Positions 11,562 to 44,648 of a stretch of 64,000 nucleotides of DNA are shown here, piece by piece (position 1 is the stretch's first letter; the number at the start of each line of letters is the position of its first letter). The DNA comes from Bilabrum cf. latius (Eukaryota). The DNA lies in NCBI GenBank assembly GCA_965178125.1, contig OZ237765.1:496001-560000 (forward strand). The letters are read 5' to 3'. The translations under genes were made by a program, and so were the position numbers. The notes beneath the pieces were generated by a model. The model worked only from the letters and a program-made list of their open reading frames with translations, did no database searches and had not been told where the DNA came from.

Positions 11562-11762
11562 AGTAGCTTCCTGCTGCAATCAATTTACTACCACATGCGT
11601 GCCGTTATTGGTAGAATGCACACAGGAGTAATAGACAAGTTTGCACAAGCTTTAGAACATGTTCCGCTTCGTTTGACGCCGCGCATTGCATTCGGAGCAA
11701 AAATTAGAAACACAAATCGCCCAAGTCGTGAATTGCATCTTAAACCAGAATTCTTTTCCTTT

Positions 11763-15120: not shown

Positions 15121-15379
15121 TTTGGACCGGTTTAGGGCTTGGTTCTGTAGTTCCACAAGGTGTACTAAACCCAGACAGACAAATGTAAACATCTTCTGCT
15201 ATATAGACGCGACGAATGTGAAATTCAAAATTTAATGTGTCGCAGCTTCAATTTCTTCATATTCTAGTGAAGTCGCACGCAGTTGCACTTGACTCGATCC
15301 GGATCTTCCAGCGCGTCACCGATGCTGGTTCAAGCTCTGAGAAGGTACTTTTTCGTCGACTTTGCGTGGGTCCCACCTG

Positions 15380-18300
15380 ATGTGGCCATTGCGTTCGGCC
15401 GGTGCAGTCGCAGCGCTTACTGCAGGTATTGCTTTGTCGGTAAGAAGCCACAGCGAAGAGCCCTCTACAAAAAGAGCCGAAGCATGTCCAGCACACAGCG
15501 AGCCAATTGTGCTTTCCGAGAGTTTCCATATTCAATTTATCTAATTTTGCAGGCAGAGCTGACGGTGCACTGGGTGCCACATTCTCACGACGATGTCGGG
15601 TGGCTCCAAACGACGACCTCCCTGCATCGACAGAACGTGTCACACATCATTGATGGAGTGCTTGGACAGCTTACGGATGAGGCCGATCCGGGTGGAATCC
15701 GGCGGTTCTCTTGGGAAGAAGTTGCTTGGCTGCGATTCTGGTGGATGACGGCGACTGAGTCCCAGAAGCAAGCCATGCGAGCTGCGCAAAGGAGTGGCAG
15801 GCTCGGATTCTACGACTCTGGAATAACGCAGCACGACAACGCGTGCCCTGACATGGATTCTATGATTTCAAACTGGGAGGCGGGCTGGCGCGTGCTTAAC
15901 TTCACGGTCGGCAGAAGCGCTCTCCCTCGCACAGCCGCGTCGCTCGACCCGTTCGGGCTGTCTGCAAGCAACGGCGCCTTGCTTCGGTAGGCGGGCATGC
16001 AGGACTGGGTGTTTTGGAGGATGCCCCGGCAGGATAGGGAGAGGCTGGGGAACATGAGCGCCCTCGATTTCGAGTGGAGGCCCAGCTCAAGCGTGCCAGC
16101 CGTTGGGGGAGTGCTGGTGCATGAGACCTGGCTCAGCTACTGCATCCCTCACGACTTTGAGTTCGGGCAACCTGGGGTGAGCATCCCTTCCTCTCCTGCA
16201 GACTTTCAAAAGCTAGCGACTGAGCTAAAAGGCATGATCGCCGAGCGAGCGCCGACCTATCCCACCGACAACCTGATGTTCCTGGACGGCTGCGACTACC
16301 ACTTCCAGCACGCACAAGCCAACTACGACTCGGGACAGAAAGTGCTGGAGCTGCTCAATGGCACCAGCGTCACCATTCCGGGCCGGGGCGACGTCACGCT
16401 CGTCACACGGTTCTCGACCGCGGAGGAGTACTTTTCCGCGGTGCGGCGAGACTCCACCGGTGGGTCGGCGGCCGTTCCGTCCTCCAGCTCGGCTGTGGCA
16501 GCAACCGGTTCAAGTGATACCGCCACCGATGAAGCCGCTGTGCAGCTGCACGTGAAGCAGGACGGGGGAGACTTTTTCACCTACAGTTAGAACTACGGCG
16601 ATCCATGGTGGGCTGGGTACTTTGTGTCCAGGCCGCTGCTCAAGCAGAGGGAGCGGCGTGTGACGAGTGCTGTTCGGGCCGCCGGGATCGCGCGTGCGAC
16701 CGTTGGGCTGGCGCGCGGCGCCGCAGCGGAACCGGAAGACTGGGAGGACGCCCAGGCTGCTGCCGCCATCCTTACCCACCACGATGCCATCACAGGCACG
16801 GCATGTGCGGCAGAGGAAGGGTGCACAGGCAAGCAGGAGATGTCCGGCGCGCACGACGTGGTGTCGGACTACCACAGGATCCTGGATGCTGCGGGTGCCA
16901 CGGCCTCTTCCCAGCTTGCCGCCGCTCTGGGCGCCGGGCCAACCGCAGCCGAGTCGCTGCAGGAGGTGGCGAAAGCCGCGGCGGCGGGTGACGTCAACGC
17001 GGCAACTCTGGCAGCGGGTCACCTTGCAAGGTCGCGGGCAGCGTGGTCGTACTGGTCGCAAGCCATGAACGATAGAGGGTACGCTGGATCTCCCGCCACG
17101 GACCCCAGGCAGCTTGCAGCGGTGCTCGAGGCCGGTCTGCCGGGCTACCTGACCGTTTTCAACCCGTCAGGCGGGGCTAGAACGGACGCGCTGTACGTGC
17201 CCATGTCCGTATGTGACGCGGACGTGGAGCTCGTCGGGGGCTCCATGATCGGATCAAAGATCGGATCAGTGCCCGTGTTCGAGATCAAGGCCCAGACGTG
17301 GATCAACGACCTCAGCCCGTATTCGTTCATCCTGACCCTGCACGTGCAGCACATCCCGCCGCTGGGCACCGCCGTTTACAAGATCACGCCGCACGTTGAA
17401 CGCTGCACCGCCGCGCAGCTGGACCTCGACCAGCACGAGGTTCTGCAGGGGGCGAACGGGCTCTAGGTCAGGGCAGGGACACCTGAGCCTCCTCCCATTC
17501 CCAAGCGTACCATTGAGAGGATCGAGAACGGCTGGATCGCGGTGGACATCGATACGTGGACAGGACCCGCGTCCTGGATCGACAAGACCACGGGTAGGAA
17601 GACCAGCTTCACGCATGGACTCGTCTGCAGGCCCGCACACGGTGACGCGTACGCTATCAACCGGACGCACGGAGGTGATGAGTCGTGCGACGGTCACGCG
17701 GCGGGACAGGCTCCGTACCAGGTGAGCGTGCACCGGGGAACAGCCACACAGGAGGTCAGGATCCGTTACACCGATTCATTCGCGGTGTTCTACAGGCTAC
17801 ACGTGGGACCGACTGCCAATGCGTCGGCGGGACTCGGTGCCATGCTGCACGTCGAGGGCAGGCTCGGGGTGCTGCCCCCTGGAAGCGACGTGTCGTCAAG
17901 GTTTGACGTCGGCATCGACAACAGCCTGCCGCCAAGGATGTCCGGCCAGCACTGCATCGGATGCGGCGACCGTGCGGCAGATGGTACTAGCTACGACTGG
18001 GCGCAAGAGAGCTCGGCACTCCGCGGATCCGGAATCGAATCCCATGGCGCCACGAGTGCCCCTTGGATGTACGGGGCCCAGAACGGGTATGAGGTGGTGG
18101 GCCGGCGCTGGAACGGCTCCCTAGTCATGCCTGGGGACGGCAACATGTTCCCCGTACAGGCTGACGTGTTCCTCAGGGGCAACTGGGCCGGAGAACAATT
18201 GAAGTGTGACGAGTGCGGCCGGGCCCAGGCAGGCGCACCGCCCCCGTTCCCGGTGCCGTGGCTGGACGGCTCCCAGGCCCAGCTGACGGTGGTCGTGGAC

Positions 18301-18963
18301 AGATCGCACGCCGCGGGGATGACCAACACTCTCGGGAGGCTTGAACTGCTGCACCACCGCCGCACCCAGGACCACGCCATCAACCCTGCCATCGTGTTGG
18401 ACGACACCTCGCGGGTCATGGCACGTCTCATGGTGGCGTTGGGTGAGGCCGGGGCGGCCAACCGCCAGAGACACGCACTATGGGAGAGGAGCCGGGACCC
18501 ACTTTCCATCGTGTACAGCAATGCAGCGCCCGAGGGACTCGGATTAGGTGCAGTGCGTGGTGGTGCAGTTGAACTCCCCGAGCAAGTTCGGCTGTAGGCC
18601 ATGCACGTGATGTCAGACGGCCAGCGGTGGTCCTCGCCGGACTAGAAAGATACAGGCAGCGGTTCTATGAGGACTGCAATGGCCGGCCCAGCTAGGCTAC
18701 TTATCCGGCTGCAGCACAGGTACGCTGCCTAGGAGGACGCTGATTTGAGCAAGCCGGTTCAGGTGGACCTGTCGCAGTTCGTGGAGGCTGCCACGGGGGG
18801 AGCGGTGGGTGGAATTGCATGCGAGCAGACAACCCTGACGGGTCACTTGCCCGCGATTGGTCTTGGGGAGGGTAGGCGTGTGGTGCGCCCGTCGGCAGCG
18901 GCGTGTAACGTGACGCTCGGTCCGCTGTCCATCGCAACTGTCGTGGCGCATCCGCTCCCGTGA
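15380..18963 (+). CDS. GH38 lysosomal-type alpha-mannosidase, 2 exons (intron 15440-15552)
   Basis: Signal peptide; VPHSHDDVGW, DPFG, DFFTY..WAGYFVSRP, HHDAITGT, LELLHHRR, LIRLQH; six in-frame TAGs (15988, 16588, 17464, 18595, 18643, 18730); TGA stop. Confidence 0.9.
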
Positions 18964-19423: not shown

Positions 19424-22400
19424 ATGAACCCTGGTCATTTTGTTGCGCTTGCAGGTCTTCTTGCTGCGGAAACGTTATCCGTCAACATTGGAGAAGCAAT
19501 CCTAAATGCGGGACCTCAGGTAACAGTGGCGTTGGGGGTTTCAGCCTTCCAAAATATGACGGTGTGCAACGGTGAGCGGTTGAACTCGATCGCCCTGCAT
19601 CGACACTCCACTGTATCACGTTAGACACGGAATCAGCTAGATCGTTCTCCGCAGGTTCTTGAGTAGCCACATCTGACCCATCAGCTATCGGCATCGGGCT
19701 GTCGGCATCGCGCCAGCGCCGGATCCTGCGTTGGGATGAACCAGTCGATCGAGAACGCGATGATGTAGCGTCGACATCATGCCGGCTCGCGCAGCTTCCG
19801 TTCCAGCCCATATTTTTGCGGCCCTCGTATAATCCAACGGCCCACTGGCGGTGGCCTATTGGGCCTGGAGGCCTACCCCCCTCAAGCATGGTACCACTGG
19901 CAAGCGAGCACCGTTTTGAAGGGGGTACGTACACGGAGAGCCCTTTGCCCCGACGCACCGTCCCGGCCCTGCGATCTGCATCAGGAGGAAACGTACCAGC
20001 GGCCATGTCTCCGCAAGAGCCTGCGTACGGCTCTGGACAACCCGGCTCTCGGTCGGCTCTCCTCCCGCCCACTCGTTCGATCGAGCCGTGGACCACAGAG
20101 GAATGGATCATTGGCTATAACAACCCGACGAGCAGCGTCCAAGACACGGTAGGATCCCTCCTCATGGGATCCTACGGCAGGTACTGGGGGGACGCTCGCT
20201 TCGGCGAGGAAGGCCAGCCGTGGATGCCGATCCCCTTTGACAGTAACCAGGGCTGGCCTTTTGACACGACAGGACACGGTACGCAGGCCCACAACGCGCG
20301 CAACCTGGTCAACGTCTGGGACATGTCGGCAACATCTCTCACACCAATGATCCGGTGCCCCAGGCCGGTGCTCAGCGAGGCATGCACCCCCATGGACGTG
20401 CCCATCGCACCCAACGACACGTGCAGGCAGGCCATGGCCTGGCGAGAGCCGATCAATGTGACGAGTGCGGAAGAGTGCTTGCTGCGACCCGCACAGCCCC
20501 ATCTGTCCAATTTAAGTGCCTTCCGTGCCGACTTGAAGTCGATCGAGGACCAGCAGGTGGTTGGCATTAGCCTGGCATTGCCCACCCCGCCAGGTACAAC
20601 CACGTTTCCCTACAGCATCGGCGGTGGTGGAATATACAACCGATGGCACCAGCTCCTCACCATCACATACCCTCCCGGCACTGTGGCTGAGATGCCGTTG
20701 ACCCCAAGCGCGACCCACGACACGGGCCACAGCACAGAGGAGTACCCATGGAGGGTGAACAGGCGGCACGTGGTGCAGACCATCTGGGACGTTCCTTCCA
20801 TTCTGCGAGACATCCGTGACTTGCAGCAGCAGCAGCTGTCAAATGAAGGCACCGGTCATGGCATCGACATGTCCACCGGATCGATGAGCTGTGCCACATG
20901 GCAAGCGGGAGAGGGTTCTTCCCAACGATTCACGCCGGAGGGGTACCCCTATGTCCAGGCGGCCGGCGTGTTGCTGGACGATCCATCATGCGTGCAAGCT
21001 CGGAATTGCTCCCCCACGATTCCTTCCAATGTATCAATCGGTTCCAAGGAACAGTTTGGCGAGATCCTCAGATGGATTCGGACGACCTCCCAGGCTCTGC
21101 CGGTGGGTGCCCAGATGCCCCGCTTTGGCTGCTCGCTGGGATACTACGTAAACGTAACGATGAACGGGCCCGTATTGAGCCCAAGAGTGGATTGGGACGT
21201 TGATCTGCTGCATATGGATTACCCAGCCGCAGCATCAACGCGTGCCGCTGCCGTCGGTGGACAGCTGAACACAGCAATCATGGGCCGTTCTCATGCCGCG
21301 TAGCCGAACGCAACAGTCCAAGGCCTAGTTCTGCACGACTCGAGTCAGGGCCGTTCTGGTCCAGCTGTTCCAGCCCCTAATCCGAGCAAACCCTGGCCCC
21401 CTCTCTTGAGCCCCATCCCAATCCAGGGACCCAAAGCTAGGTACAGGGGTGCTGCCCTGTGGAGGTTAGTGGCAGATTCACCGTCGAGATCTCTGCCGCC
21501 AATTAAGGGAGGTAGGTGGACGTGCGGCAGCACCACCTCGATCGGGTCTTTCTTCATGCGACCCGTGTGTCGCGCCACCTGCAGCGATCCATCGCTGCTT
21601 GCAGTGGACATTGACCTGGAAAAAGCGAAATCGGTAGAGCCCTCAAGGCGAGGATACGCAGGTTTGGCGTCGCTCGCCAGGCCCTGGCTTTCGCGCTGGG
21701 GAGGGCATCCAGCTCTGGCACAGAGCCAGAGCGTGGTGCCGCGGGCTGACAGACAGCCAGCGGGACTGCAGGCATCGTTTGGCGGCTGGAAGACGCAGGC
21801 AGGCTGGCACATGCCTCGGTACAGCGTTGGTGGCAAGCCTGTCGGCGCTGCAATGCAATGCATTCGCGACGTTGGGACTGATTTCGGCTGGACTAAATCC
21901 CGATGGGTGCAGCGCGAGCCCACCAGTCACGCCACGGTCTAGTTCACGCTTTGGTTCGATCGAAATCAGTGGCCTGCCAGCTACTTAGCCCACCAGGACT
22001 AGACCACTGGCCCGGGTTTGACATACCCCGTCCCTTCTCCGCAGCAAGTACAGCGTTTGCGGGCCGAAGTGCGGGCTGATGTCATGGACGTGCTAGGGGA
22101 ATGGAATCCTAGCCTTCGCGGTGTTTTAGCCGGCGAAAAGGGGAGGCTGTTGCCTGATTGGGAGGCCTGGGAGCTCGGCAATGCACCATCCAACGCGAGA
22201 CGGGCGCACTGCAACAACGCAACGTTGCTTGATAATCGCTTGATTCAAGTAGAGGTGCTGCAGGTGCGAGCGCCAGATGTCGAACGCACTGCAATTGACC
22301 CGTCCAGGCAGCAGCATATTTTGCCAGTGCCACCCCAGGATGCCCCCTACATCCCAATGGAGATCGACGTGCGAGTGGTATTCTAGCAATTGCCTTCGGT

Positions 22401-24522
22401 GCTGTACCACATGAACGGTTCTGACAGCACCTAGCGGGGCAGATCTGCGGGCACGCTGGCCCAGCAGCTGGGAGCGATCCTGAGGGGGGAGAGGCCGGGG
22501 GCGGAGGGAGGCGCCTGGCTGCCTGCTGCCGCGCCTGATAGCGTCAATGTAGCCGTTGAGCTGCCGTGCCTGAGCGGTGGGATCGGCTCCAGTGCGACAG
22601 CATGCGGGTATTCGGCGGGGCGTGCACTGCATGCGCCGCTCGCGGTGGTACAATGGGTCCTGCTTGCCGGCTGTGCGGCTGCCGCTGCCGGAACGTTTGT
22701 AGCACGCTCTCGGCTGTGCAGCGATGGGGATTTGACTGATCAGGACGACTTTCAGAGAGACGCTGTCCGTCACCTGCTATCGACCGGGGATGAATGCGGC
22801 ATGGATGATTCAGCAAGCGCCCTCTTGCTGTCGGATCCTGGTGACGAGCTGCCTGTCGCGCTCGTGCCTGTCCCAGTCTCGCCTGTCAGCACGCAGCGCC
22901 GCTTCTTACGCGGCAATGGCTCGCTAGACGAAGTCAGCAGAGTCGATTCGCAACAATCATCGTCCGGCTCAAACAGCCTTTCTTAGCCTTCAAAGCACCC
23001 GCAAGTGCAACCTCAAACTGGTATGCATGCTGATCCCGCTGCAGCTCTCACGGGGGTTCGTGTAGATGCATCAACTGGCAGGTCGATGGAGCGCGGGCAC
23101 GACTTGGACCTGAGCTTGCCTACCTCATCGTCATCAAATGCGGATGAACTTCGCCTCCAGACCTTGACGCACATGAGTACCGCTGGGGGGAGCCAACCAG
23201 ATGGCTCCGATAGACATGGTGCGCGCGGTCAACTGTCCTCCAGTTCTGGCATGGTTGGTGTGGTTTCGCAAGGGTTCACTTGTTGTTGCCTTTCAAATGA
23301 GTCTGTTGACATTCTGATTAGCATTGGTAGCTTGTGGAGGATGTTTCAGTACTGGGTCTTGGCTGCTGCGTTGTCTACAGCGCGGCTGGACCTGCCTGCC
23401 ACTTTGCTGTTCACGGCACTCTCTGCTGCACTGATTGCAAGGGCACTGGTCATGGTGGCTGGCGAATGGATACTACCTTGTGGGCACGTAACAATCGGCG
23501 CGTTCTGTGGGGATGCACTTGTAGACAACCGAAACAGCAGGACGTGCTGCAGAACGGTGCGAAAGTCAGCTGTGTCGACTAGTCGTGGAGCACATGCTGA
23601 CCTTGTGACCCTCCCGAGCGAGCATTGCAACTCTATCCAGGAGGGTGCCGGGGCAGAAAACGTCCACAGCGAGGGATACGCTTCTGGTCCATACTTAAAT
23701 GGGGTGAAAGAGAGCGGAGGCAGCGTCGTGCCGGCTGCGGACATCGGTGGTACATCTGGTTCTGCGAAGACGCCGGCAAGCCTGCATCGTTTGCGGCGAC
23801 AGAGTGATGGGAGCGGAGCCCTCTGCGAAGACATTAAAGCAAGTAATCGTTGGCCAGGACATACTGGCATACCGCAAAGCATCAATGGCGACGCATCTGC
23901 GGCAGCTGGTGTCCTGCGTTCCAGCACGTGCGACAACCACCGTGGAACATTCGATACAAGTCAAATAACCCGGTCTGGACACCATGATGCACTACAGTCG
24001 AGGGTTGAGTCCACCGTGGACGATAGAACTATGATTGCAAAGCGAACGATCCATGTCTCTGGCCTGGTTGACTCGCTGACGCCAGGATACATTGTTCTGC
24101 TTCGAGCCTTGCAGACGCTGCAATGGGACACGCAGAGGTTGGCGCTGGTTGGCCTTGGGTCATGGTCTGCGCCGATTCACTCTGCGCTCCAAGGCAAAAT
24201 CATCGATGGGCTGAGGAGCCGTGTTGCTCTGGTGGGGGCCTACCACCGCGTGTGGGAGGATAGCTTTGTGCTTGCGTGCGTGGCGTGGGGACTGGCATGC
24301 ACCATCGGAGCCTGTAAAGCAGGAGCCTGCCTTGGTACGTTAGATCGGTTGTCGGTGAGAGGACATGAGATGTCATTCCGACGAACGAATTAGGCGCTGT
24401 ACTTCTAGCAAAGGCTTGTAGTGGCAGGGCTGCCGGCCGTCCTGTCGCTGGCTGGAGCTGTCATATCAGGATCTCTTGCCGTGTGGACGATGTGCAAAGT
24501 CCGATTGCAAAGGGCCGGCTAA
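19424..24522 (+). CDS. Large uncharacterised membrane protein (signal peptide, long ectodomain, C-terminal hydrophobic segments); 5' structure uncertain
   Basis: Frame 19663-24522 is interrupted only by 8 TAGs and closes at TAA 24520-24522. Confidence 0.6.
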
Positions 24523-24613
24523 TCTCCGCAAATCGTGATAGAGCAATTTAGGGGCTACGTTGTTGGTTTGGACTGCGCAGCCTTCGGTCAAAAAATATAG
24601 ATAGTCGATACTT

Positions 24614-27600
24614 TCAGTGCGCACCTGCCTGTAGTAGAACGCTGACACACTCCTGGTGATCGCCGTCCCTAGCAGCATCCAACGGGGTCTTTTCTACTCC
24701 GTCCACCATTCGTACGCGATCAATACCGCCTGCCAATCTTCCGAGTCGCAGTCGTTTGGCCAGCTCGAGCGGCCGACCCTCGCGTGCCGCCTTAAATACT
24801 AGGGCAGCGTCCCTGTGCGCGTCGCGTGCCCGTCGCCACAGCAGCACCCGAGCAAAGCAGTGCGACCCTTTCGCTTGATGCAGCCGCGTGATTCTTTCTT
24901 GAAGACCGGGTGTGCTTGCGTCAACCACCCCCGGCTAGTTTGCCTTTTCGAAAGCGAGTGTGATAAGCCGCATCGCCAGTTGCCTTGGTAGGCAACCGAG
25001 CCCGTCGTGTGACCCGAAACCACGTTTCTTCCTTGCCCATACTTCTGCCTCCGCGTACGGCGTACCGGTTTCAACCACACTAGTATAGGACTCGGCATTA
25101 GGGATAGCCGACCAGCGGCTGCCCATCTCGGACGTGTAGAGAAGCAGTTGTCTTGCACCTCGATCATCCACGAGAGCTTGCACCAGCAGATCGATTTCAT
25201 GTCGTCCAGGTGGCCGTGAAGCTGACTCGAACGCTCTCTACGTGTAAGATGCAACCCGATCGGCAGGTAGGCGCTCGCCTTGTTGGATGAGGCGAAGCAT
25301 GCATGCAGCCCGAGCTGGGCTTGGCAAGCTTAAAGCTGAGCTGAGACACATGCCCCTCTGCTTCATCACTGACTGGCCTGCTTCAGCAGCGCAGTGTCGC
25401 TCATGGGTGACATCGGCTTCATCCAGCCAGCCTATAGCCTTTTCCAGACGAGAGTATTGACAGCCAGACCCGGATACTTCGCATCGTTCGGATTGCCAAG
25501 GCAAACCCAAGCAGAGCATTGACGGGTGCTTTCTCCACACGCTAGTCTCCAAAGATTGCCTGTCGTCCAGAGATTGCCTGCGGTGTGGCGACCAAACAGA
25601 ACTCATTCTACCAATCGTGAAACTCAAAAGTGAGCAGTTCTTTGGTATCGCACGCTACCACGATAAGGTAGGGTAGTCCACTCGCATGCCTGTGCTGATG
25701 TCAAGGTGCCGAATTGCTTGGTTTGTTTCAACCACTTGAGCAAATTGCGCATGTCCTGCCGCCGACAGGCCGCAATTGGCGAGATTCAGGCGGGTCAGAG
25801 AGGCGTTGCAGCGCGCAGTCACTTTCCCGGCTTGTTCGGGGGGATTTGGCGGTGGCCACATGAGTGCACGTGCGATAGCAACACCACCTGCATCGTGCAG
25901 ATTCTGCGAGTCCTACAGATCTAGCTCTTCGATGACATCACTGCGCCGAAGCAGGCCCGCGATGATCCTACCTTCCGACTCTGCTACCCCTTTCATGCGC
26001 AGCACTCGCAGCTGCTTTGGGAGCATGTCCTCGATTGCAGCATCAAATACGCCCAAAGACCAGCCCATGAGGTTGAAAGAGAGGGAGAGAGCCTGCAGCT
26101 GGCTGTCCAGCTGGAACACCAATGGTATGCTATTGCCAGGGTTCGATACGCCGTCTCCCACCCATCCCACGACTGCAAGCTTTTCCAGTGACTGGCACTA
26201 CCACAGCCGGGTACAAATATACTCGTTAGTGCTAGTGTCGCGAATTGCCCTGCAAAAGGCAGTGTCCACGACCAACTCTCTCAAGCCAGTGACCTGCTGG
26301 CTGTCTGATGGCCTACCTGACGAAACGCCTGTGGCAACACACTTCTCACTAGTCTTGGTCACAGTAGCCTAGCTTGGACTGCCTGCATACACCTCTGGTG
26401 GGCCGACCAGGTCTAGCACGGCTCGAGTGGTCTTTTCGCCTAATTCGCAGCGTATGAAGTTGATGCGCCGCAGCTGCCTTCGTCGATCCAGATGTGTCGA
26501 GTTTGCGCCCGCGAGCGCCTGGATCACAGCACCAAAGTATGCATCCTCTGCAGAGATGTACAGACACTCAACAGCAGACAGATTCGTGAAAGCTCCTTCT
26601 CTCCCAGCCTGCACCACGCATCTGACCAGACCTTCGCCGAGCTTGACCGCTTGAAGGTGCAGTGACTAGAACGAGAATGGGGGCGGTTGATGGGGCGTTT
26701 CTGCCTGGACCATGGACCAGTCGTCTTTACCTGTGGCTGCACCTGCATGCGAATGTTTTGAGTACCCATCACTGCTGCTGGCTCCAGGTTGGGGGCCACT
26801 GCCCCCCTTGGCACAGCCGGCTTGTGCTTCCGCAAGTGACCATGGAGGCTTGGCGTGACTCACGAAAAACGCAGCCAGAATGTCAGACTGAGATATTTTC
26901 GGTTGATCATCCTATCGAACTAAAGCAAACATGCTATCAAGATCCCCGGTGGACTCATACGGCCATATAGTAGTGTCTTGCTCGCTCAGACGAGCTGGTT
27001 CTGGCTCTCGGTAGCACCCGATGTCGTTCAGACACAAGTCTTTCAGCTAACTACAACTACGTACCGCAAGCCCTACTCGGTGCATGGCGTACTACACATC
27101 GTAGTCATCTGATTGTACATAAAGCTGGACGAGCGCTAGCTCCCGAAGGCCTTGCGAATGCCTGCGAACCATATCAGCGAGGAGCTGCAACGCTCCGACG
27201 TCCAGAGATAGCCCACTGAGGTGCAGCCCTCGTAAAGATTCTTCATCGAAGGATCGCACTTTAGCGATTGATTTGATGAGGTCGTGTGATGCTTCAAGCG
27301 ATGCTAGATCATGGGACATGTAATGTAGGCTTCTGAGGCCGGAGATCCTCGCGAGCAGCCTAGCAAAGGACTTGGCGTATGCACTCGAGTTCGCACTTAT
27401 ACATATAGAAATCGATGCAATTCTGTATAGCTAGCGCTGTTCTGCATTCGCTACGGCTTCTAAGAGCGCCTGGCCTCTTTCTCCGTCTTCGGACGTATCA
27501 ACGATCCGCAGGCTTCGAATAGCATGCGCCCCAGAGGCCAGCTGAGCAATGTGCACAGGTGATGCATCAAGCAAAGTCATCCGTGTCACGGCGTCATTGA

Positions 27601-27667
27601 TATGAATCTCAACGAGGTCGACATCTGTGACCGAGTATCTGTGTTTCACAGCCTCAAGCTCCACCAT
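24614..27667 (-). CDS. 1017-aa RNI-like LRR protein with ankyrin-like C-terminus; divergent paralogue of the cassette LRR gene
   Basis: Single frame with 11 TAG and no TAA/TGA; LRR motifs; C-terminal AAREGRPLELAKRLR..TPLDAARDGDHQECVSVLLQAGA. Confidence 0.8.
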
Positions 27668-28009: not shown

Positions 28010-30040
28010 TCATTGCAGAGGCCCGGCGGGGGATCTCCTCTTCTTGGAGCGAGCACCAGTGCACCGAAGCTTCACCAGGCGGTCGTGCGCCTCCAGCTCG
28101 ACCACTTGCCCGTCATCACCGTGCTCATCCACTCCCTTGGCCCTGATGCCTCTGTACACCGGAACTCGCCCCGCCTCCACCTCGTCAAGCTGGTACAGGA
28201 TGTCAGCCGCCCAAGCGACCACCGCAGGCATCCCCCTCGCCCTATTCGAAGCGATGAAACCCACGAACTCGTCGTAGTCAAGAACGTGGGAGCTGTCCTG
28301 ATCGATGTCCTGGAACAGATGCACCCGCTCGAAATCCGAAAGCAGCATCCTGGCACCGGGTATGCTGGCCCTGCCTTCACCTGCTGCTGCCCCACCCGTG
28401 GCACTCCCTTCACTCGTCACACGCGTATCCCGCTCCACTGCCGCGTCCACGGCAGAGCTGACCGTCTTGCCCTTCGAACCACTCGTCACACTCGTGAACT
28501 CCAGCACCGAGATCACCCCGTCGCTGTCCGCATCGATCCACCCGAACAGCCTGCCCGCGTTCTCCTCGCTCAGCACCTCCCACGGTCGCACTGGCCTCTC
28601 CATCCAGTGAAGGTTCGGACCCTCGACAGGGAGCAGCTCCGGAAGTGCAGCCGGTGTAGACGCGCCTTCCTCGTCTTCCTCTTGTTCTTCTTCTTCTTCT
28701 TCAATCGATGCGGTGCCCTCGCCCTCGCCCTCGCCCTCGGCATCGGGTTGGGGTTGGGGGGGAGCTGCCACCGGCGTGGGAGCCGCTGCTGGCTGCTCAT
28801 CCGGTTTCTCATCTTCATGTTCCTATTGCATGGGTTGGCCGGCGGCGATTTCACCTCCGGCAGCACTGGGCTGTCCAGACCCCTGCGACTCAATCGCCGC
28901 CCCGTCCTTCTCTTCATCTTCATCTTCGTTGCCCTGCTTGTATTCCTGCTCGCCGCCTGCACCGGATGATGGAGCAGAGGGGGCAGCGCCTGCTTGCGCG
29001 TCCGGTGGACCTGGGGGACCTGGGGGACCTGGGGGACCTGGGGCTGCGCTCATCACACTGCTTTCGAGCACTGTTGCGGTTGCGTTGAGGTCCGTCTTGG
29101 ACTCGGAGCCCTACATCGACTTGGACTCGGGGGCCCCGCGGTGGCCCACGGCCGGACTGGGCAGCACCGGCATCGATTCATCGCCTAATGGTGCCCCACC
29201 AGCTGCTGCTGCTGCCCTGTCCTCATGCCCCTGGCCCTGGCCATCTATCTCGGGCTCGGATTCGGACCCGTCCAAACTGCACGCTACTGATCCCAGCTCC
29301 CTGGACTTGCTCGCTGCGATCCGTAATCCCCCCGGCCCCGCGACCCCCGCACTCCTCACACTCCTGACCTCTTCCAGCAGCGACTGCGGAGCCTGTAGAC
29401 CTGCAGCCACGAGGAGAAGGGACACGCCGGCGCACTTGGCCCCGTGGAGCTCCAGCGCCTGCATCCACAGGGCTTGTCTCTTGTCGCCGTCTGCTCTGAG
29501 GAACAAGGGCCGGTCGAAGGCCCAGACCGTCCGCGGTGGGTCCGAGGCTGGCGCTCCCACCAGGCTGCTGGTGTCTTGCTCGCTGTCTTGCTGTTCTGTT
29601 CCCGCGGAGGCAGAGGAGGCTCCTAGAAGCGGCGATACACCTTCATGCCCGCCCTACTTCGAATCTAGTTGGGATCCGCTTGCTGCAGCAGCGCGCGCGG
29701 TGGGGGATCCTGCCAGGGACGGCGCTCGTCCAGCAGAGCTGCCACGCACGCGGAGCATAAATTCCATCGGCTCGGAGATTCCGGCCCACGACGTAGCATC
29801 CGAAGAATCTCCACTAGAGTGTGTTTGGGCTAGAGCAAGGGCCCGCTTTCCATCTGCGGCAACTTCTGGCTTTAAAGTTCTCTTTCCACCGCTCTTCGCT
29901 GCTACCTGCTCCGCGGACTGCAAGGCGCTGGAAATCGCTTCCGCGCCTCCCTCACCGCACGGGAATGCTTCAAATTCAGATAATTGCAAGAATTTATTCT
30001 TCTAGGGCAGCAGTCCTGATAGCCACGAATTTTCATCCAT
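28010..30040 (-). CDS. EF-hand-containing protein (~676 aa)
   Basis: EF loops DADSDGVISVLEF and DQDSSHVLDYDEF; four in-frame TAGs (30002, 29654, 29111, 28823); TGA stop. Confidence 0.7.
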
Positions 30041-32268
30041 GTAAAAAGAGACCTAACCGTCGTCAACTACCGCCCATCTTTGTTTCCAAGAGCTACCTCG
30101 TAAAATTGAGCCCCCTGGTCCTCTCTTGCAAATTTCGCCTGCATTCAGCATGAAAGCGTGGTGGATTAGCACTACAAGACTGGCTAATGGGCCTGCATCC
30201 GATTGTGCACGCGCCACCAGACTCACCACAGAAGGCTTCAGTGTTCATGAGGAAATTTAATACGATTTAATCAATAGACTTGTTTATACTTGTGGTCGAA
30301 GTTGCAGTCGCTACTATTAAATTTGGCGGTTCAGTTGCGGTGCGGTGCGGTGCGGTGTGTAAGTTGATTTTTGGTGAGGTCCATCGCACTGCACGATGGT
30401 GCTGGTGCCACCACAGCAGCACCAGCAGCAGCAGCAGGAGGAGCAGGAGTTTCAATTGGCTCGCGATCGGGACCATCAATGGGTGGGGCGGCTGCAGGAG
30501 GCCGAGGCAAGGCCAAGGGGCGCGGTCGAGGCCGGCGCAGGCGCAGGGGCAGGGGCAGGGGCAAGAGCGGAGGGATCAAGGTGAAGCTGGGGGCTGCCGG
30601 TGCGGCATCAGCTTGAGCTGGCGGCAGCCGGTCTTGACCGGAGTATCGAAGCAGGCGTTACAGTGTCTAGCTGTGACGAATGCGCAAGCAGAGTGAAGTG
30701 GGCAGGATGTGGTGGTGGAACGAGGCCCCGTTCGCTTGTGGATCAAGTGCAAGTGGGGTGCTCACGGCGATTATGATGCATCTGGCATATAGCAGCATGT
30801 TTGCGTGCCCGCGGTGCCGGCCGCCCCGGCGACAAGCCGCTGGCACGACCCGGACCCGGAGGGGGTGTGACACTGCCACCTGCCGCCAGGACCAGGGGGC
30901 CGGTATTTGAGTGGCGAGGCAGCTCGAGCGAGATGGTAGACGAACGCAAGCAGTTCCTTAAAAGATTGTCCGTATAGTTGTCATTTGTATCTTGGGGTCT
31001 TCAGGTGCGGGGAACTTACAGTTGTGGCTGGCCTGGGATGCACGGGCATGAGGCCGATGGGAGCACTGAGTAGCATCCAAGGCCTGAGGCCTTCGCTCCA
31101 GAGCGTGCTCTCGGATGATGTGCGCATTAGTATTGCCGCACATGGTAATTATATGAATATGGCAAGCTACTCGTCGCACATTACCTTGTTTCTAGACCCT
31201 TGCCTCCGTGTGAGCCGCGCCTTCGGGGATTGCTGAGGTAGAGGCGCCGCGCGCACGTTTGGTTCCGTAGAGGTTTACCGCAGTACACACGACATACCGT
31301 CAGTGCACACAGCAAGAGTAACTCAAGCTTAGCGATCATTTTTTTCGCAAGAACCTGATTCCCAAGTTTAATAGACACGAAAGGGTTCACCGTGCAATCT
31401 ATTTCGGTTGCTTCAGCAGGCATTGCCCAGAGCGGCTCCAGCGTCGGCGTCACGACTTCGAAGCGTGCCTCTCGAGGACCCTCTGGCCGCGTGCACCTTT
31501 CAGTGCAACCTGGTGAGGCGCATATTATCCAATTCAAGATTGCGTTGCTTATTTGTGTGAAGGCTGCACTGGTTCACTATTTCGCAACTTGCGACCATAG
31601 TCGTGGTCGCTGCGGTGTGGGTGCGCCTGCCTCAGATTTGCAGGCTTGGCGGCGATTGAGTGAACTAGCCTTGTCACAAACTCATCTTTTAATATTTTGT
31701 AAAACAGATTTTGACCTTATCTGTTCACGTATGCAGGTGGAACCGTATCAGCAGGTTAGCAAGCCCCAGATAGCAATCTCGATCCCATGAACAGGCAGAT
31801 GGTCAGGAATATTCACATCGGAGAGCCTAGTACAAGGCATGAAAAGCCTTCTAAAGCTGGTGAGCTCAGTTCGTCTGCTCGTTGGGCAATAATGGCCGTA
31901 CTAGTCGCTGAACTGAATGAGACCCAATCGGCGGAAGTTGCAAGCGAAGTTCATTGGTTTGTCGCACGTGCGTTTTAGGGACTGTCTTGCAATTACGCAC
32001 CCAGAACCTGGCTACAATTATAATAGATAACTACTGCTGATGGCCTGTGCTAACATTCTTGCTCTCATTTGGCACGGGGATGCATGCAACGGCAGACAGC
32101 CATGTGCGGTCGCTCACTGGAACCGTGCGATACCGTGCGATGTTAACGTCATGTGGGACACAGCTAGATTTTATTATTGTATGACTATACGGATTTGCTA
32201 GTTGAATCGTATTGCTGGACGCAGACAGGAGTGCCGGCCATGTCGGTGTTGCGAACTCAAGTATCGCC

Positions 32269-34729
32269 ATGCAGGGAATGCCCCAAAGCGGGGCAGATGT
32301 AGGCACAAAGAGCATCCCTCAAGGTAAGAAAACAAGCTCGTGCATATGATTATCGCAAGTGTTGCACGATAGGGTGCAGTCGAACGTCTTTTGTACCGAT
32401 TTCGCGAGAATGTACGTCATGTGCCGAACTTTTCATCAGCGCAGGAGGTTCGAAGATTGGCGCAAAACGTCAACGCGAAGACACATCTACATTTGATGCT
32501 TTAGCAACTGGCACCCCTCACGTCTCGCTGTTGGACACCCTGGCGAGCATCGCAACCAGCATTCCCATGACCAACGTGGAGCCGCGGATCGCACAGCAAC
32601 CGCCGGCGAAATCTCGCAGAGTTGGCAGCAGTGGTGCCATGAGCTTTCTATCGTTAGATCAGCCGTCTGGCGTGCAAAGCGTGGCTCCTCTTGACTTCGA
32701 ATGGCCGCAGGCGGCATCTCGAGTTGCCCCAACCCGGCTGGCTGGGCCTCATTCGGACACATTTTCGACGCAGCTGCCCGGTACAGGATAGCTAGGCAGC
32801 TCATACTCTGCTCACTGGTCCTTCATCACCAATGGCACGCCGGGGGTATATCCTTACGACGCTGAATCTCGCGCAGCACGTCCCCGAGCAGATACCCACG
32901 AGCGAGCACAGCGCGCCGGCCGCGTGATGCAGACTGTGGCGAGCTCTGTTGGGGCCGGATTCGCAGCTGGGCTCGTGCTCCCCGCCCAGGCAGGCATGAA
33001 ATCCGTAGACATAGCCTCTACCACCGGGAGCGTGCATGGAGACGGAAGCGAATCCGCCCGGTCGGGATTCGCAACGGCTGCAGGAGAAGGAGACGGAGCG
33101 TCCTATGCCAAGCGATCCGGACCTCCCGGCGTGGAAGGACCCTCCCAGTCCTCGGCCTCGGACAGCGTCCGGAACTCGCCCGGGAATGCGAGCGGAAACG
33201 GGGTCGAAGCGACGGCGCCGCACAGCCCAGCCATGGCTGCAAGCTTTGGTGTGACGAGTGAACTTGCTGGTGTGACGAGTGCGGTGCTGCCTGCCCCACA
33301 GGTCGCAGGTCGCGCGAGGGAACAAACGAGCGATGCCTCGATGCGCCAGCAGTACCAACGGCGGCACCAACCGCGAATGGGACATGAACAGGGACAGCAC
33401 TGCCAGCATGCCCGCTGGTATGACCAGCATGCGCATATGCTTCAGCTGCAACACATGCAGAGACTGCAGCAAAGGCGGCAATACCAGTTGCAGCTGCAGA
33501 AACAGCTGCATGAGTTGCAGCAGCAGCGGCAGCAGCTATACCAAAGCCGCCTATTGGGCATGGGACCAGCTGCCACGGGCGTGAACATGAATACAGGCAT
33601 GGGCATGGGCATGGGCATGGCTGTGGGTGCGGGTGCGGAGGTCCGCACGAGCAGCAGCGCGGGCCGTATCCCAGGTGCAATGCACGGTGGCGCTGCCACG
33701 ACGACAACGGCATGGCGCGGATCTGGCATGCAGGCTGGTGCGGTGGGCGCTGTCCCCAACTAGCACCCAAACCCCCACCTTGGGGTCCTAGGTGCCTGGG
33801 GGGGGTTCCATCCGGGATCGATGGGGACCCACGGTGCAGCACATTGGGCATATCTGCCGGCGTCCACCGGCGGCATGGGGTATGGAGGCACGGGTGGTCG
33901 CCCGGTTGCATCGTCCTCCTCGTCCTCGTCCTCCTCCTCCTTCACCTCTGCCGCGATCCGGATCGGCTGGGATCGAGGTGTGACGAGTGCGCCCATCGAC
34001 GACGGGTACGCCGTGGCGCAGCAGCTGTCCGCGCTATCATCATCCTCCATGCCTTCAGATGCCGTGCACGAGACACGAGGTGCCAGCAATGGCGGCGGCA
34101 TGACAGGGGGCGGCGACGCTGGAATCTCTACCTCTCTCGGCATCTCTGTGTCTGGAAAACCGACGAGCATCGCCAAGCCGGTGATTGGGACCCCTGCGCC
34201 CCGCTCGGTGTTCGGCCCCGTGAGCGCCATGGGCCAGCAGGAGCTCTCCAGTGGCCGCACGATCGACTCGTACATCCTCACGGCCCAGGACGGGTACAAA
34301 TGCGCCGTGTGCAGCCGGCATTTCAGGGAGAAAGCCAAGCTGAGACGGCACGTCAAACGGGTGCACGAGGGCAGGCGAGACCACAAGTGTCCCCAGTGCG
34401 GGAAGGGGTTCAAGGGCTCGGACGATCTCAGGAGGCACATCCGGGGCGTGCATCAGGGCGTAAGGCGCTACACGTGCCCGACGTGCAAGTGGAAATTCGG
34501 GCAGAGGTCTAACCTGAGGAGGCACCTGGAGGCGGGCGGGTGCAAGGAGGGGATGGGGGCACCACCCGGAGCCGAAATGGATGAGCCAGAGGCGTCGGTG
34601 GAGTCCTCGTCCCGCGGCAGCGATGCCTCGTCTAGACCGGGGAATGAGGGACTCGTGGGCATCCGTCAGGCAGGCCTTGTAGGGCCGGTGGACCCCCTCA
34701 TTGGGAATGGGAGCTCCACTGCGATCTGA
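32269..34729 (+). CDS. C2H2 zinc-finger transcription factor with Q-rich region (intron 32324-32444)
   Basis: Three C2H2-type fingers near 34295-34545; phase-compatible GT-AG intron; TAG at 32789 and 33761; TGA stop. Confidence 0.78.
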
Positions 34730-35042
34730 TTCGTTCGGTACGATGCAGTGCGATGTGCTACTAGCGATGCTGCAGCCCGAGGGTTGCATCTGTGCCCAAC
34801 CGCTTGCGATGATGTTCGTGCGGATTGAGGCCAGGGCGGCGCCATCGAAAGCAGCGTGTGTCATTTGTTTAGTCCTCCAGTGGTAGCCCGTCCATGGCCC
34901 CTTTGCCAGTTCAGTTTGTTCACCCACTCTGGCCACTCGTCACATTGAGAACTGCTGCCCGTGATCGTCCGGGCAAGAACGGGAAGTTTGCAAGTCGCAC
35001 TAGACTTCGAAAATCATCTCTTTCGAAAACACCCGTCCAACT

Positions 35043-35598
35043 ATGGCATCAACTCCGATGTGGTCGTACATGGATAGATCTTGGCGCCCGTATTCGAACA
35101 GGGATACGGCCGGACTGGAAGCTGCGCGAGTGGCTGGTCAAGCTACATATGCCTTCACCATTCCGTCGGGTGTGCAGTACAAGGTTGACCTTACAAATAT
35201 GACGCAGATAAACACTAGAACGGGGTTCTAGCGCCGAGTGCGCAGGACGATTTCAACTAGTGCGCGCCCTGCGCCGGGCGCGCCCCCGGCAGCCAGTGGA
35301 GGTCCTGGATCGTGGCAGTACAAGGATAACTCATGGCACCCGTACATCACAGCTCAGCAGATGGGACTCAGTGCGGCAGTTACTGCTGGCAAGAACACCT
35401 ATTCGTTCCAGTTGATGAACGGAGTATGGTACGACGTTGATTTATCCACCATGCAGCAGACGAACAGGTCGACGGGATTCAAGAGGCCAGTTCGATTTGT
35501 ACCTGGCGTTTCGATGACAGGATCATATGGAGCACCTGCTGCGGCACCCGCTGCAGCCATGGGTGGCGCAAGACGTACCCAAGCACCTGCACCTGCAC

Positions 35599-35632
<34 letters not shown>

Positions 35633-37124
35633 ACCTGCACCTGCACCTGCTCCTGCATCTGCACCCGCACCTGCACCTGCACCTGCACCTGCACCTGCAC
35701 CTGCACCTGCACCTGCACCTGCACCTGCACCTGCACCTGCACCTGCACCTGCACCTGCACCGGCGGCAAGGACCCGGCGCACAGCCAGAGGTGCGGGTTC
35801 CGGCACGGGAGCAGCTGCACCACCGTTCCCTGCATCCCAGCGGTTCACCTGCACGGGCAGGGAACACGCCGAGGCACCTCAGGGGGCGAGGGGCTGGGCC
35901 CCCCTCGCCAAGTGGCGGGTGCTCGACGCCCTCGATACAGAGCTATCGACGCACAGATGCTGCGTGTGCAGGTGCACCTTCGACGAGGACAAAGACCCGG
36001 GGCAGCCCTTCTACGACGATGGCATGGATGAGGATGACCCGGAATCGGAATCCGAGGGGGCGGAACAGGACCCGCCCAGCGCGCCCCCATCGAGCACCGA
36101 GGCGGGGGCTCCCACCGCGCCCGCCTCGAGCGGGGCCGGGGCGGGCGACTCGACTGCAGGCGGCGGAACCGGAGATGCGCGGCGCCGTAAGCGCCGCACG
36201 GACCCCCGCACCCTAGTTCCCTACCCCACGGAGGAGTACACCCCTCCCCACCGCGCGGCCTTCGCGTACACCCCGGAGACCGCCGTGAAGCTCCGGTGCT
36301 GCGGGCTGCTCATCCACGCGGAGTGCTTTGCTCAGTGCCTCAAATCCAGGAAGCAGTGCCCCGTGTGCATGGCCCCCTATGGAGTGGTCACAGGAACACA
36401 GCCTGCTGGCACCATGACCATCCAGCACCAGCCGGGCGGGAGTGTGCCTGGGTATCCCCCGGGATGCGGGGTTATCACCGTCGGGTACAACTTCCCCTCG
36501 GGGGTCCAGGGGCCGGAGCACCCCCACCCCGGGGTCGCGTACAGCGGAACATCGCGCGGCGCCTATCTGCCGGGAACCCGCGAGGGCATGGAGGTTGCTG
36601 AGCTCCTTAGGATCGCTTTCTAGAGGAGACTGACCTTTACCGTGGGAAAGAGCGTGACTACCGGCAGAGAAAACGTCGTGGTGTGGGCGGGCATCCACCA
36701 CAAGACGGGCATGTCTGGAGGCGCGGCACGGTTTGCATACCCCGACCCCACCTACCTCCAGAGGGTCAAGGATGAGCTGGCGGGCAAGTGTGTGACGAGT
36801 GCTGACCTAGTGGACGACGAGGACGAGGACGAGGACGGCAGCGGCACTGCTGCTGGGGCCGGGCCAGGGGTGGCCGGCGGCGCCTCGACCCCTGCTACCG
36901 GCAGCAGCGGCGCGGGTGCGGGTGCGGGTGCGGGTGGACCTGCCGTGCTGCGCAGGGAAGCGTCGGGGCCGGTGGCCAAACGGACGAGGTACGTGTGGCC
37001 GTTCCCTCCAGGGTTTGACGAGGGCAGGGAGCTGGGGATCGCCACGGCGCGGGCCAAGGAGGTCGATGCCAAGAAGGCGGAGGAGGACGAGGGCGAGGGT
37101 GAAGTGGCGAAGGGTGGGTCGTGA
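35043..37124 (+). CDS. Deltex-family E3 ubiquitin ligase (WWE-WWE-(AP)n-RING-DTC)
   Basis: Two WWE domains; RING ending [59 protein letters not shown] at 35229 and 36621; TGA stop. Confidence 0.9.
35583..35760 (+). repeat. (GCACCT)n coding repeat, poly(Ala-Pro) linker
   Basis: Tandem hexamers. Confidence 0.92.
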
Positions 37125-37322: not shown

Positions 37323-39022
<1,700 letters not shown>

Positions 39023-39264
39023 CGCACTACAGGTAGCTGCGGCAGTCAGAGTTGAAAAGTTCATGTGAGACGATACCAGCACATGGGCAATAGCAGCATG
39101 TAGAACTACGTATCCTTCTGGTTTGCCCTTACATACTATCAAAAAATCTATAGATTGATGTTGATTGATAAACAAAGGGGTTGCAAATTTCGATTCCGAT
39201 CCACTGCTTGACTTGATTGTAATGATGCAGTTAAATAGACATAGTTATGGTATGCTATGGATGA

Positions 39265-39600: not shown

Positions 39601-40424
39601 ATTAGGTACAAATGAGTGCACACGCTGCAAGTCTTCGCGACGGTTCGTCATCACGATCAATTGCGATTCCGGCTTCAATGTGATACGATAAACTGGTGGC
39701 GGCGTCGTGCCATGTACCTCAGAGCCGCACTCCAAGTTCCTGCTCACCGTCCGAACAGGCCCTTGAGACCCTCTATCAGCTTCAGTGGTTGGAATGCTAC
39801 CTCGGAGGCGCCACTGAATGTCGATTCCCTCCGATCCACAACGAAGCAGTCCGCTATCTGACATGGTGCGCCTTGCCCAGTCAAGCACAAACTGCATCAA
39901 GCAAAGGGCTGCAAGCGGAAATGGACACACTTCCAGCGCAGATGCACACCTGGTCGAACGATCCTAGTGGCCGCAGAGCAGAGTCTGTCTACGTTGCGTG
40001 TCAGGTCCTTCGCAAGGTTGCCCACCGTGATACTTGACTGGCAATGATACATCCAATTAGTGCAAATTACTTGGTATGCCGTTTATTGTAGCTCTAGCGG
40101 ACAGGCAAGGGAGTTTCGTTCGCAGTCGTCTTCTATGGCACGTGTTCCGTACCCCTTTCGGATACACACGGCATTTTATATTGCCTCTATATACCCTCAG
40201 ACTTATCTTTCAAGATACGAAGGGAATTTCCGTTTTCATGATGCTATGGCCACTACTTGGGCGATTTGTTAAGTTTCTAATTGTTGCTCCGAATGCAATG
40301 CGCGGCGTCCAATCGAAACGGAACATGTTCTAAATCTTCAAGTTCTGCAATTGTCCATTACTGTGTGCATCCTACCAATGACGGCACGCATGTGGTAGTA
40401 AATTGATTGCAGCAGGAAGCTGCT

Positions 40425-44611: not shown

Positions 44612-44648
<37 letters not shown>

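Follow-up and report, generated by a model that had tools for sequence, protein, structure and literature searches.

Nuclear genetic codes in which UAG and UAA have different meanings are rare; those described come from a single fornicate, a single rhizarian, one genus of green algae and a small number of ciliate lineages (PMC11687900, PMC5304391; all statements on described codes refer to the portions of these two papers drawn on here). In the fornicate Iotanema spirale, UAG specifies glutamine (Gln, Q), UAA and UGA are stops with UAA as the primary one, and decoding is predicted to rely on a tRNA-Gln(CUA) that arose from tRNA-Gln(CUG) (Panek et al. 2017, PMC5304391). UAG is likewise Gln in the ciliates Hartmannula sinica, Trochilia petrani and Protocruzia tuzeti (McGowan et al. 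2024, PMC11687900), leucine (Leu, L) in the rhizarian exLh and a phyllopharyngean clade, and serine (Ser, S) in Scotinosphaera (PMC11687900, PMC5304391); wherever the main stop of such UAG-only reassignments is stated, it is UAA. Other lineages have reassigned both codons: UAR (UAA and UAG) is Gln in many ciliates, Hexamita, Streblomastix, Amoeboaphelidium and ulvophycean algae (NCBI table 6; PMC11687900), and UAG stands for glutamate (Glu, E) and UAA for lysine (Lys, K) in Oligohymenophorea sp. PL0344 (PMC11687900, PMC5304391). The conversion of a stop to Gln is described as the commonest reassignment (PMC11687900). Here we analyse a 64,000-nucleotide stretch of contig OZ237765.1 (positions 496,001 to 560,000; henceforth the window), and in particular a minus-strand gene at 24614-27667 of the window, flagged in an earlier reading of the letters (the original prediction) because TAG alone interrupts its frame. 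We argue that UAG is a sense codon in this genome, most likely for Gln, with UGA as the usual terminator and UAA probably still a stop.

Translation of the minus strand across 24614-27667 bears out the predicted frame of 1017 codons with eleven TAGs and neither TAA nor TGA; the coordinates that had been given for the TAGs are exactly the low coordinates of these codons (Table 1), and the three peptide contexts that had been quoted (SCSxLKDLCL, LWxCQSLEKL and ELDLxDSQNL) are present in the protein. Four codons 5' of the ATG lies the nearest in-frame stop on that side, a TGA (27679-27677). At the stop rates per codon seen in the six frames of the window (TAA 0.0040, TAG 0.0081, TGA 0.0140), a random frame of 1017 codons would lack both TAA and TGA with a probability of ~1e-8, and the probability that TAG accounts for 11 of 11 stops is ~2.5e-6. 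Divided at its TAGs, the frame yields 12 pieces with lengths of 14-138 codons, and by a codon-usage score the shared frame is the best one in 11 of these, the exception being the piece of 14 codons.

The original prediction had treated the reassignment as a property of this one gene, which is not borne out, as TAG read-through is common to genes across the window. With the standard stops, the window contains 24 open reading frames (ORFs) of at least 300 amino acids (aa), the longest of 547 aa; with TAG read as sense there are 48, and six ORFs of 1021-1620 codons emerge with 4-11 TAGs each and no TAA or TGA. Reading TAA as sense makes hardly any change (25 such ORFs versus 24), and reading TGA, the commonest stop in the window, as sense gives many overlapping ORFs with a maximum of 886 aa. 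Across 14 ORFs we counted 67 TAGs in 12,475 codons (5.4 per 1000) and no in-frame TAA, the flagged gene having the highest TAG density of the set (10.8 per 1000 codons). Pfam families typical of eukaryotes were recovered in 7 of 16 TAG-through ORFs, with E-values of 3e-34 for GH38N, 4e-50 for DTC, 5e-27 for WWE, 1e-18 for MACPF, 1e-17 for DUF4200, 4e-13 for zf-C2H2 and 7e-9 for SPRY, and a second batch gave Pfam families in 4 of 16 ORFs (ASL_C, 5e-43; Lyase_1; PhoPQ_related; fn3). In the GH38 mannosidase, the Deltex-like protein and the adenylosuccinate lyase, homology to solved structures continues through the TAG positions.

The paralogous genes of the window provide a second line of evidence. 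A pair of subtilase-like genes has 5 of 6 TAG sites in common, and three paralogs resembling leucine-rich repeat (LRR) and ankyrin proteins have two TAG sites common to all three and further ones common to two. The ratio of nonsynonymous to synonymous substitution rates (dN/dS) is 0.54 for the subtilase-like pair and 0.24-0.35 for the LRR-like paralogs, by which measure these genes with conserved TAGs are indicated to be evolving under purifying selection. Since TAG is the only in-frame stop in the long genes of the window and is conserved in paralogs under such selection, the TAGs are sense codons and not marks of decay, in line with what had been argued from the flagged frame alone. UAG is thus almost certainly a sense codon genome-wide.

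The persistence of the TAGs in the message can be followed in contigs from four coded public runs (X1, X5, X6 and X8), which were aligned to positions 19000-31000 of the window. An X5 contig (24499-27697) and an X6 contig (24886-27731) are collinear with the DNA with no differing letter and no gap, and an X1 contig is continuous from 22512 to 28664. In the neighbouring gene, contigs of X5, X6 and X8 have an 88-nucleotide (nt) skip (30137>30226), absent in X1, and the skipped segment starts with GTGAGT and ends with CAG on the gene strand. From this splice joint we infer that X5, X6 and X8 are spliced, transcript-derived contigs, their library types not being on record. The joint in these runs, taken with the uninterrupted contigs over the flagged frame, indicates that the flagged message keeps all eleven UAGs and that neither splicing nor editing removes them. 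Thus, the continuous transcript coverage proposed as a check in the original prediction is found, insofar as the runs with the spliced neighbour are RNA, and the splicing out of TAGs, which it had named as a refutation, is not seen in these collinear contigs. The X5 contig, in reaching 24499, also overlaps the final codons of the convergent ORF 19663-24522, and the flagged gene and that ORF appear to overlap at their 3' ends.

With respect to termination, TGA ends 14 of 15 ORFs and TAA the remaining one (19663-24522). The TGA of the lyase comes directly after the residue aligned to the last residue of the solved bacterial enzyme, and that of the mannosidase coincides with the end of a close database relative, P0004; UGA usually terminates genes here and does not serve as a sense codon. 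A-ending codons account for 23-36% of comparable two-codon pairs, such that ~29 TAAs would be expected in frame if UAA were also Gln. None is observed, and hence UAA probably still terminates. Two ORFs in a lower-GC relative from a metagenome, L001, also end in TAA. It has to be set against this part of our reading that UAA as a stop has as its basis one ORF end here and two in L001, none of them homolog-confirmed, beside the lack of in-frame TAA.

We propose that cytoplasmic translation in this organism would read UAG as an amino acid in all genes, with UGA as the usual terminator and UAA probably as a stop. By analogy with known cases, a tRNA whose anticodon is CUA most likely inserts Gln at UAG, and the release factor eRF1 would no longer act on this codon. 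If UAG is sense in all genes, then the flagged frame would be an ordinary, intact and expressed gene for a 1017-residue protein. We place the probability of this whole explanation, Gln included, at about 0.83. That the frame is instead a decaying pseudogene, or that its TAGs are spliced out, edited, subject to rare programmed readthrough or recoded in the manner of pyrrolysine, we regard as negligible: nothing specific points that way, except that the flagged protein has no Pfam family and a single database relative, whereas TAG alone interrupts the long genes with no frameshifts, the conserved TAGs lie in paralogs under purifying selection, and the contigs over the whole frame carry all 11 TAGs with neither gap nor changed letter. 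Pyrrolysine-type recoding is known from archaea and bacteria (PMC5304391), whereas here TAG occurs at 5.4 per 1000 codons and in every long gene, and the genes are eukaryotic with GT..AG introns. A code of the table 6 type, in which both UAA and UAG are reassigned, UGA is the sole stop and UAA is simply rare in a GC-rich genome, would accord with the near-universal TGA ends and with the fact that the TAA-ended ORF 19663-24522 would extend by just 41 codons to a TGA; we consider it quite improbable nonetheless, with the 67 in-frame TAGs set against no TAA where ~29 are expected, with the homology-supported genes being complete without reading any TAA, and with the two TAA-ended ORFs of L001, for all that their ends are without homolog confirmation.

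As for the identity of the amino acid, several comparisons favour Gln. Opposite TAGs, paralogs within the window have CAG twice, GAG once and TTG once; among relatives of the mannosidase, the 85%-identical P0004 has Q, Q and G, never E, at three TAG sites, and P0014 has Q and T. In the family recovered from metagenomes, one TAG faces CAG, CAG and CGA and another CAA, while column 150 of the GH38 family has Q in 48 of 144 sequences, with Leu second (20/144). Evidence of a different kind comes from the database relatives P0136 and P0151, each of which ends one residue before a CAG codon of the corresponding window gene (residue 588 for P0151). These are 2 of 2 fragment ends inside an alignment, with stops and contig ends not distinguished from one another. 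As Gln makes up ~4% of codons, two ends at CAG are unlikely to arise by chance, and an end before a CAG is the outcome expected from an in-frame TAG in the relative; no fragment ends at a Glu codon.

A number of other observations weigh against Gln, and many of these could instead point to Glu, with UAG still a sense codon genome-wide and UGA (and UAA) the stops. At the lyase site, 80 bacterial PurB sequences have E in 56, D in 12, Q in 8, A in 2 and G and L in 1 each; in the GH38 family, D occupies column 350 in 85 of 124 sequences against a single Q, and G occupies column 1064 in 24 of 37 with no Q; the TAG site of the DTC domain faces K, E and D in three solved Deltex proteins. The two GH38 columns and the DTC site suit E over Q, and on the seven distant family columns alone Q trails D by 1.8 nats and E by 1.2. 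In close relatives, E stands opposite TAG three times (the paralog GAG, P0001 and P0151), and S, K, Y, G, T, H, P, V and R also occur: P0001 has K, Y and E; S and E occur in P0151, which also has S or R next to a gap; and L003 compared with L002 has H, P and V. Beyond these, CAG is the transition neighbour of TAG, from which some excess of Q is expected by mutation alone; a tandem repeat in ORF 11556-12782 has TAG in one unit where the others have TGG (Trp); and a tRNA scan of the 64-kb window returned no tRNA genes. A per-gene Poisson test of TAG against amino-acid counts was not discriminating (L 0, Q -0.64, gene length -2.03 and E -4.96 nats), and a first ranking by neighbour composition placed the true residue at rank 1 in just 17% of 285 calibration trials and was replaced by pairwise tests. 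Other residues (Leu, Ser, Lys, Arg or Tyr) or ambiguous decoding also find some support, chiefly in the case of Leu: besides being second in GH38 column 150, it is first in column 1019 (4/17), it faces TAG in four of the five subtilase alignments shown (residues L, L, L, T and L, three of the five being near-identical proteins), and a TTG faces TAG once. Ser is opposite TAG in P0151, and the TAG site of the WWE domain faces M, M, R, R and R.

To combine these sites, we used a BLOSUM-based likelihood over 12 close-relative sites and seven family columns, leaving out the gap-adjacent site of the flagged gene, the sites from the metagenome family, the columns for WWE and subtilase and the repeat with TAG in place of TGG. 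Gln came first, with Glu 2.4 to 2.6 nats below it, Lys ~8 below and all others, including Arg and Ser, more than 11 below. For the pairwise neighbour tests, we took residues up to three positions away from 52 TAG sites in 11 ORFs, each paralog group being represented by a single copy. TAG has a Q-versus-E log ratio of +15.8, as against 9.0 ± 4.9 for gene-matched Gln sites and -5.7 ± 5.2 for Glu sites, and the score of the TAG neighbourhoods was attained by 0 of 2000 gene-matched samples each for Glu, Asp, Lys and Ser, and by 19 of 2000 for Leu (in the Q-versus-L comparison). With the tested codon held out of training, the values are -13.2 for GAA, -6.1 for GAG, +1.2 for CAA, +3.0 for CAG and +10.5 for TTG, beside the +15.8 of TAG, and 0 of 600 held-out GAA/GAG samples reach the TAG score. 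In this held-out form TAG lies nearer to Leu (+10) than to the Gln codons (+1 to +3), a point against Gln and for Leu; the neighbour test serves to disfavour Glu, Asp and Lys, not to favour Gln positively. Glu is accordingly unlikely, being behind Gln in the overall alignment likelihood, having neighbourhoods unlike those of TAG, and being absent both from the TAG-facing positions of P0004 and from the fragment ends. We hold the other residues to be somewhat less likely again: Leu occurs in 1 of 80 sequences at the lyase site and in none at GH38 columns 350 and 1064, and, by eye, the TAGs in the LRR-like stretches of the flagged protein occupy variable polar positions and not the Leu positions of the repeats. 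Gln, at ~0.85 with all the evidence weighed and stop-to-Gln in mind as the commonest reassignment, remains the favoured residue. Of the original proposal to read this gene with Gln and NCBI table 15, it stands that Gln is the best-supported, probable residue, with Glu only ~2.5 nats behind and some conserved family columns favouring Asp/Glu.

Placed beside the described codes, a UAG-only Gln code with UAA and UGA as stops is already known, and the present one matches NCBI table 15 if the residue is Gln. Iotanema spirale is alike in reassigning UAG only, probably to Gln, in having no in-frame UAA or UGA and in not being a ciliate. It differs in that UAA is its primary stop, against the predominance of TGA here, and in being known from the transcriptome of an anaerobic flagellate, the window being genomic DNA. 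Hartmannula sinica, Trochilia petrani and Protocruzia tuzeti have what is probably the same codon table (table 15), with UAG widely used as sense, but prefer UAA as a stop (PMC11687900), where TGA is preferred in the window. The exLh, phyllopharyngean and Scotinosphaera codes share the UAG-only reassignment and what is here the probable retention of UAA as a stop; however, Leu and Ser are more than 11 nats worse than Gln in our data. The UAR = Gln codes share the change of a stop to what is here probably Gln but not the disparity of 67 in-frame TAGs and no TAA. Were the residue Glu, we know of no code table that describes UAG as Glu with UGA and UAA as stops; the UAG meaning would then be close to that in Blastocrithidia and Oligohymenophorea sp. 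PL0344. UAG as Glu with UAA and UGA as stops is not among the UAG codes in the portions of PMC11687900 and PMC5304391 drawn on here. A literature search gave no report tied to the lineage of the window, which does not show that the code is unpublished. We tentatively raise the possibility, which we rate as rather below even, that the organism of the window and its metagenomic relatives L001-L004 constitute an undescribed non-ciliate clade with an independent UAG reassignment and near-exclusive UGA termination; within that reading, the chance of Glu being the amino acid is about 1 in 12.

Codes that split UAG from UAA inform how suppressor tRNAs and the specificity of release factors co-evolve. 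With its long contigs, a GC-rich eukaryote poor in introns would be a convenient system for tracing changes in tRNA(CUA) and eRF1, a search that was impossible in the 2017 study for want of genomes (PMC5304391), and it comes with apparently transcript-derived data in several runs and environmental relatives with the same trait. Among the ORFs of the window scanned with Pfam, eRF1 was not found. In practical terms, standard-code annotation would shatter most genes of this genome, and its database relatives are present only as fragments of 74-236 residues (P0001, of 787 aa, aside), the flagged protein being without a full-length entry.

The relatives recovered illustrate the latter point. A search of the full protein library with the mannosidase gave 1981 matches at E<=1e-3, and four among the best 150 are close: P0001 (787 aa, 64% identity), P0004 (150 aa, 85%), P0014 (134 aa, 68%) and P0136 (74 aa, 70%). 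An ESM Atlas look-up of P0001 returned generic GH38 clusters only. The flagged protein has one database relative, P0151 (236 aa), with 77% identity over residues 351-587, and no homologs of 559-1780 aa were found for it in the protein library. Such short relatives (74-236 aa) are the expected output of a standard-code gene caller on genes containing TAGs. Scanning metagenome contigs with the C-terminal module of the flagged family yielded four loci (L001-L004; GC 0.49-0.54), which hold ORFs open only with TAG read through; in L003, the ORF at 600-2453 has 618 codons with 6 TAGs, and the longest standard ORF there has 198. The database relatives and the four metagenome contigs evidently have the same TAG-as-sense pattern. 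L001 additionally holds, on the minus strand at 1537-2124, a WW-domain ORF with a TAG inside the domain (WW E 0.0015, below the Pfam cut-off), and, on the plus strand at 200-655, an ORF with ankyrin repeats (Ank E 1.9e-7) that lies immediately upstream of the C-terminal module.

Turning to the flagged protein itself, the original prediction had read its repeats as normal LRRs and proposed a hidden Markov model (HMM) search of the table 15 translation. No Pfam family was found in it at E<=0.01; at E<=10 only LRR_6 and Ank surfaced, both below their cut-offs (Ank at residues 993-1016 with E 0.13 and 13.1 bits versus 21.1). Hence, the LRR repeats go without HMM recognition, although a weak fold match at residues ~14-170 and repeat patterns discernible by eye speak for them. 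The single-sequence AlphaFold2 model has a mean predicted local distance difference test (pLDDT) score of 40, with 827 of 1017 residues under 50, and blocks with pLDDT of 67-79 occur only at residues ~50-170, where strands and helices alternate regularly. The top Foldseek matches are the leiomodin/tropomodulin and NLRP1/NLRC4 LRR domains (E 9e-4 to 2e-2; template modelling (TM) score by target ~0.5). The likeness to these RNI-like LRR domains, such as those of tropomodulin/leiomodin and the NLR proteins, lies in the modelled strand/helix alternation at residues ~14-170. As points of difference, the flagged protein yielded neither a NACHT nor an actin-binding domain, nor any other partner domain, its C-terminal module is lineage-specific, and no LRR profile rises above threshold. 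Over this module, 35 of 61 residues (57%) are identical to the paralog at 9969-11579 (E 2e-15). Our reading of the product is that of a predicted RNI-like LRR protein, specific to this lineage, ending in an ankyrin-like module and presumably serving as a scaffold for protein binding if the fold type is a guide. The gene is most likely one of a small family, of which the window contains three more copies, a judgement made jointly with the whole explanation above.

Table 1. Features of the flagged gene and of the other genes in the window, in window coordinates
Feature	Coordinates	Strand	Remarks
Flagged-gene coding sequence	24617..27667	-	1017 codons, ATG 27667-27665, 11 in-frame TAG taken as sense
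Flagged-gene stop codon, TGA	24614..24616	-	
In-frame TAG, residue 79	27431..27433	-	
In-frame TAG, residue 192	27092..27094	-	
In-frame TAG, residue 207	27047..27049	-	
In-frame TAG, residue 252	26912..26914	-	
In-frame TAG, residue 334	26666..26668	-	
In-frame TAG, residue 433	26369..26371	-	beside alignment gap with P0151 (S or R opposite)
In-frame TAG, residue 490	26198..26200	-	Ser opposite in P0151 (77% identity)
In-frame TAG, residue 585	25913..25915	-	Glu opposite in P0151
In-frame TAG, residue 671	25655..25657	-	
In-frame TAG, residue 810	25238..25240	-	
In-frame TAG, residue 911	24935..24937	-	
Predicted RNI-like LRR domain, residues ~14-170	27158..27628	-	strand/helix repeats; AlphaFold2, Foldseek
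Only part of flagged gene with a database relative (P0151), residues 351-587	25907..26617	-	
Sub-threshold LRR_6 match, residues 621-638	25754..25807	-	E 0.13, 12.9 bits versus cut-off 23.4
C-terminal ankyrin-like module, residues 956-1016	24620..24802	-	common to three LRR paralogs and L001-L004
Subtilase-like ORF	5631..9770	+	5 in-frame TAG; paralog of 42219-46328
LRR/ankyrin-like paralog B1	9969..11579	-	2 in-frame TAG
GH38 alpha-mannosidase ORF	15271..18963	+	6 in-frame TAG; ends TGA
1620-codon ORF, family unknown	19663..24522	+	8 in-frame TAG; sole TAA-ended ORF in window
Neighbour gene	28010..30248	-	5 in-frame TAG; sub-threshold EF-hand matches
Neighbour-gene intron	30139-30226	-	88 nt, GT..AG
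C2H2 zinc-finger ORF	32147..34729	+	in-frame TAG
Deltex-like ORF (2 WWE, RING, DTC)	34965..37124	+	in-frame TAG; ends TGA
Adenylosuccinate lyase, two exons	37323..39244	-	one in-frame TAG; TGA at C-terminus of homologs
Lyase intron	38140-38324	-	185 nt, GT..AG
LRR/ankyrin-like paralog B2	40407..42011	+	5 in-frame TAG
Subtilase-like paralog	42219..46328	-	6 in-frame TAG, 5 common to 5631-9770
LRR/ankyrin-like paralog B3	47639..49255	+	4 in-frame TAG
DUF4200 coiled-coil ORF	50672..52486	-	4 in-frame TAG
SPRY-domain ORF	58328..61987	+	4 in-frame TAG
MACPF-domain ORF	62415..63998	+	2 in-frame TAG; continues past window end

The window has a GC content of 0.52-0.67, few introns and genes on both strands, and very probably represents nuclear DNA of a GC-rich, intron-poor microbial eukaryote, a reading held jointly with that of UAG as Gln. 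One-strand gene clusters of the kinetoplastid kind are not seen, gene orientation alternating along the window, and none of the genes present is a marker gene. We presume a ciliate macronucleus to be an unlikely source in view of the long contiguous multi-gene DNA, the GC content of 52-67% and the GT..AG introns.

Several features of the other genes merit mention (Table 1). The adenylosuccinate lyase is of the bacterial PurB type, with 55-64% identity to gammaproteobacterial enzymes over 269 residues; it has an Arg/Ala/Ser-rich N-terminal extension resembling an organelle-targeting peptide, and its intron carries a long C-rich tract. An inverted segmental duplication (5631-11579 / 40407-46328) comprises two copies, in opposite orientation, of a subtilase-like gene together with an LRR/ankyrin-like gene, with synonymous divergence (dS) of 0.05-0.08; a third LRR-like copy lies at 47639-49255. 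The subtilase-like proteins (9770, 42219) end in ...CVVS and an fn3 protein (39265) in ...CIVS, which we take to be CaaX-like ends, and the LRR-like paralogs (9969, 42011, 49255) end in ...CCGCFG; these termini suggest that the proteins may be lipid-anchored. A homolog search with the DUF4200 protein produced no match.

Low-complexity sequence is found at several places. Long perfect Gly-Ala dipeptide runs occur inside both subtilase-like genes (~7000-7400 and 44600-44900), and long perfect Ala-Pro dipeptide runs inside the Deltex-like gene (~35550-35800). The plus-strand ORF at 11556-12782, whose coding status is uncertain, is made of tandem 14-residue units resembling GEDG.EGAVWGRPP. Finally, a short CAG/GC-rich segment at 30414-30563 attains a summed contig depth of ~500 in X5, X6 and X8 and of 97 in X1, with many loose ends and alternative joints, and probably represents a dispersed repeat of the genome or transcriptome.

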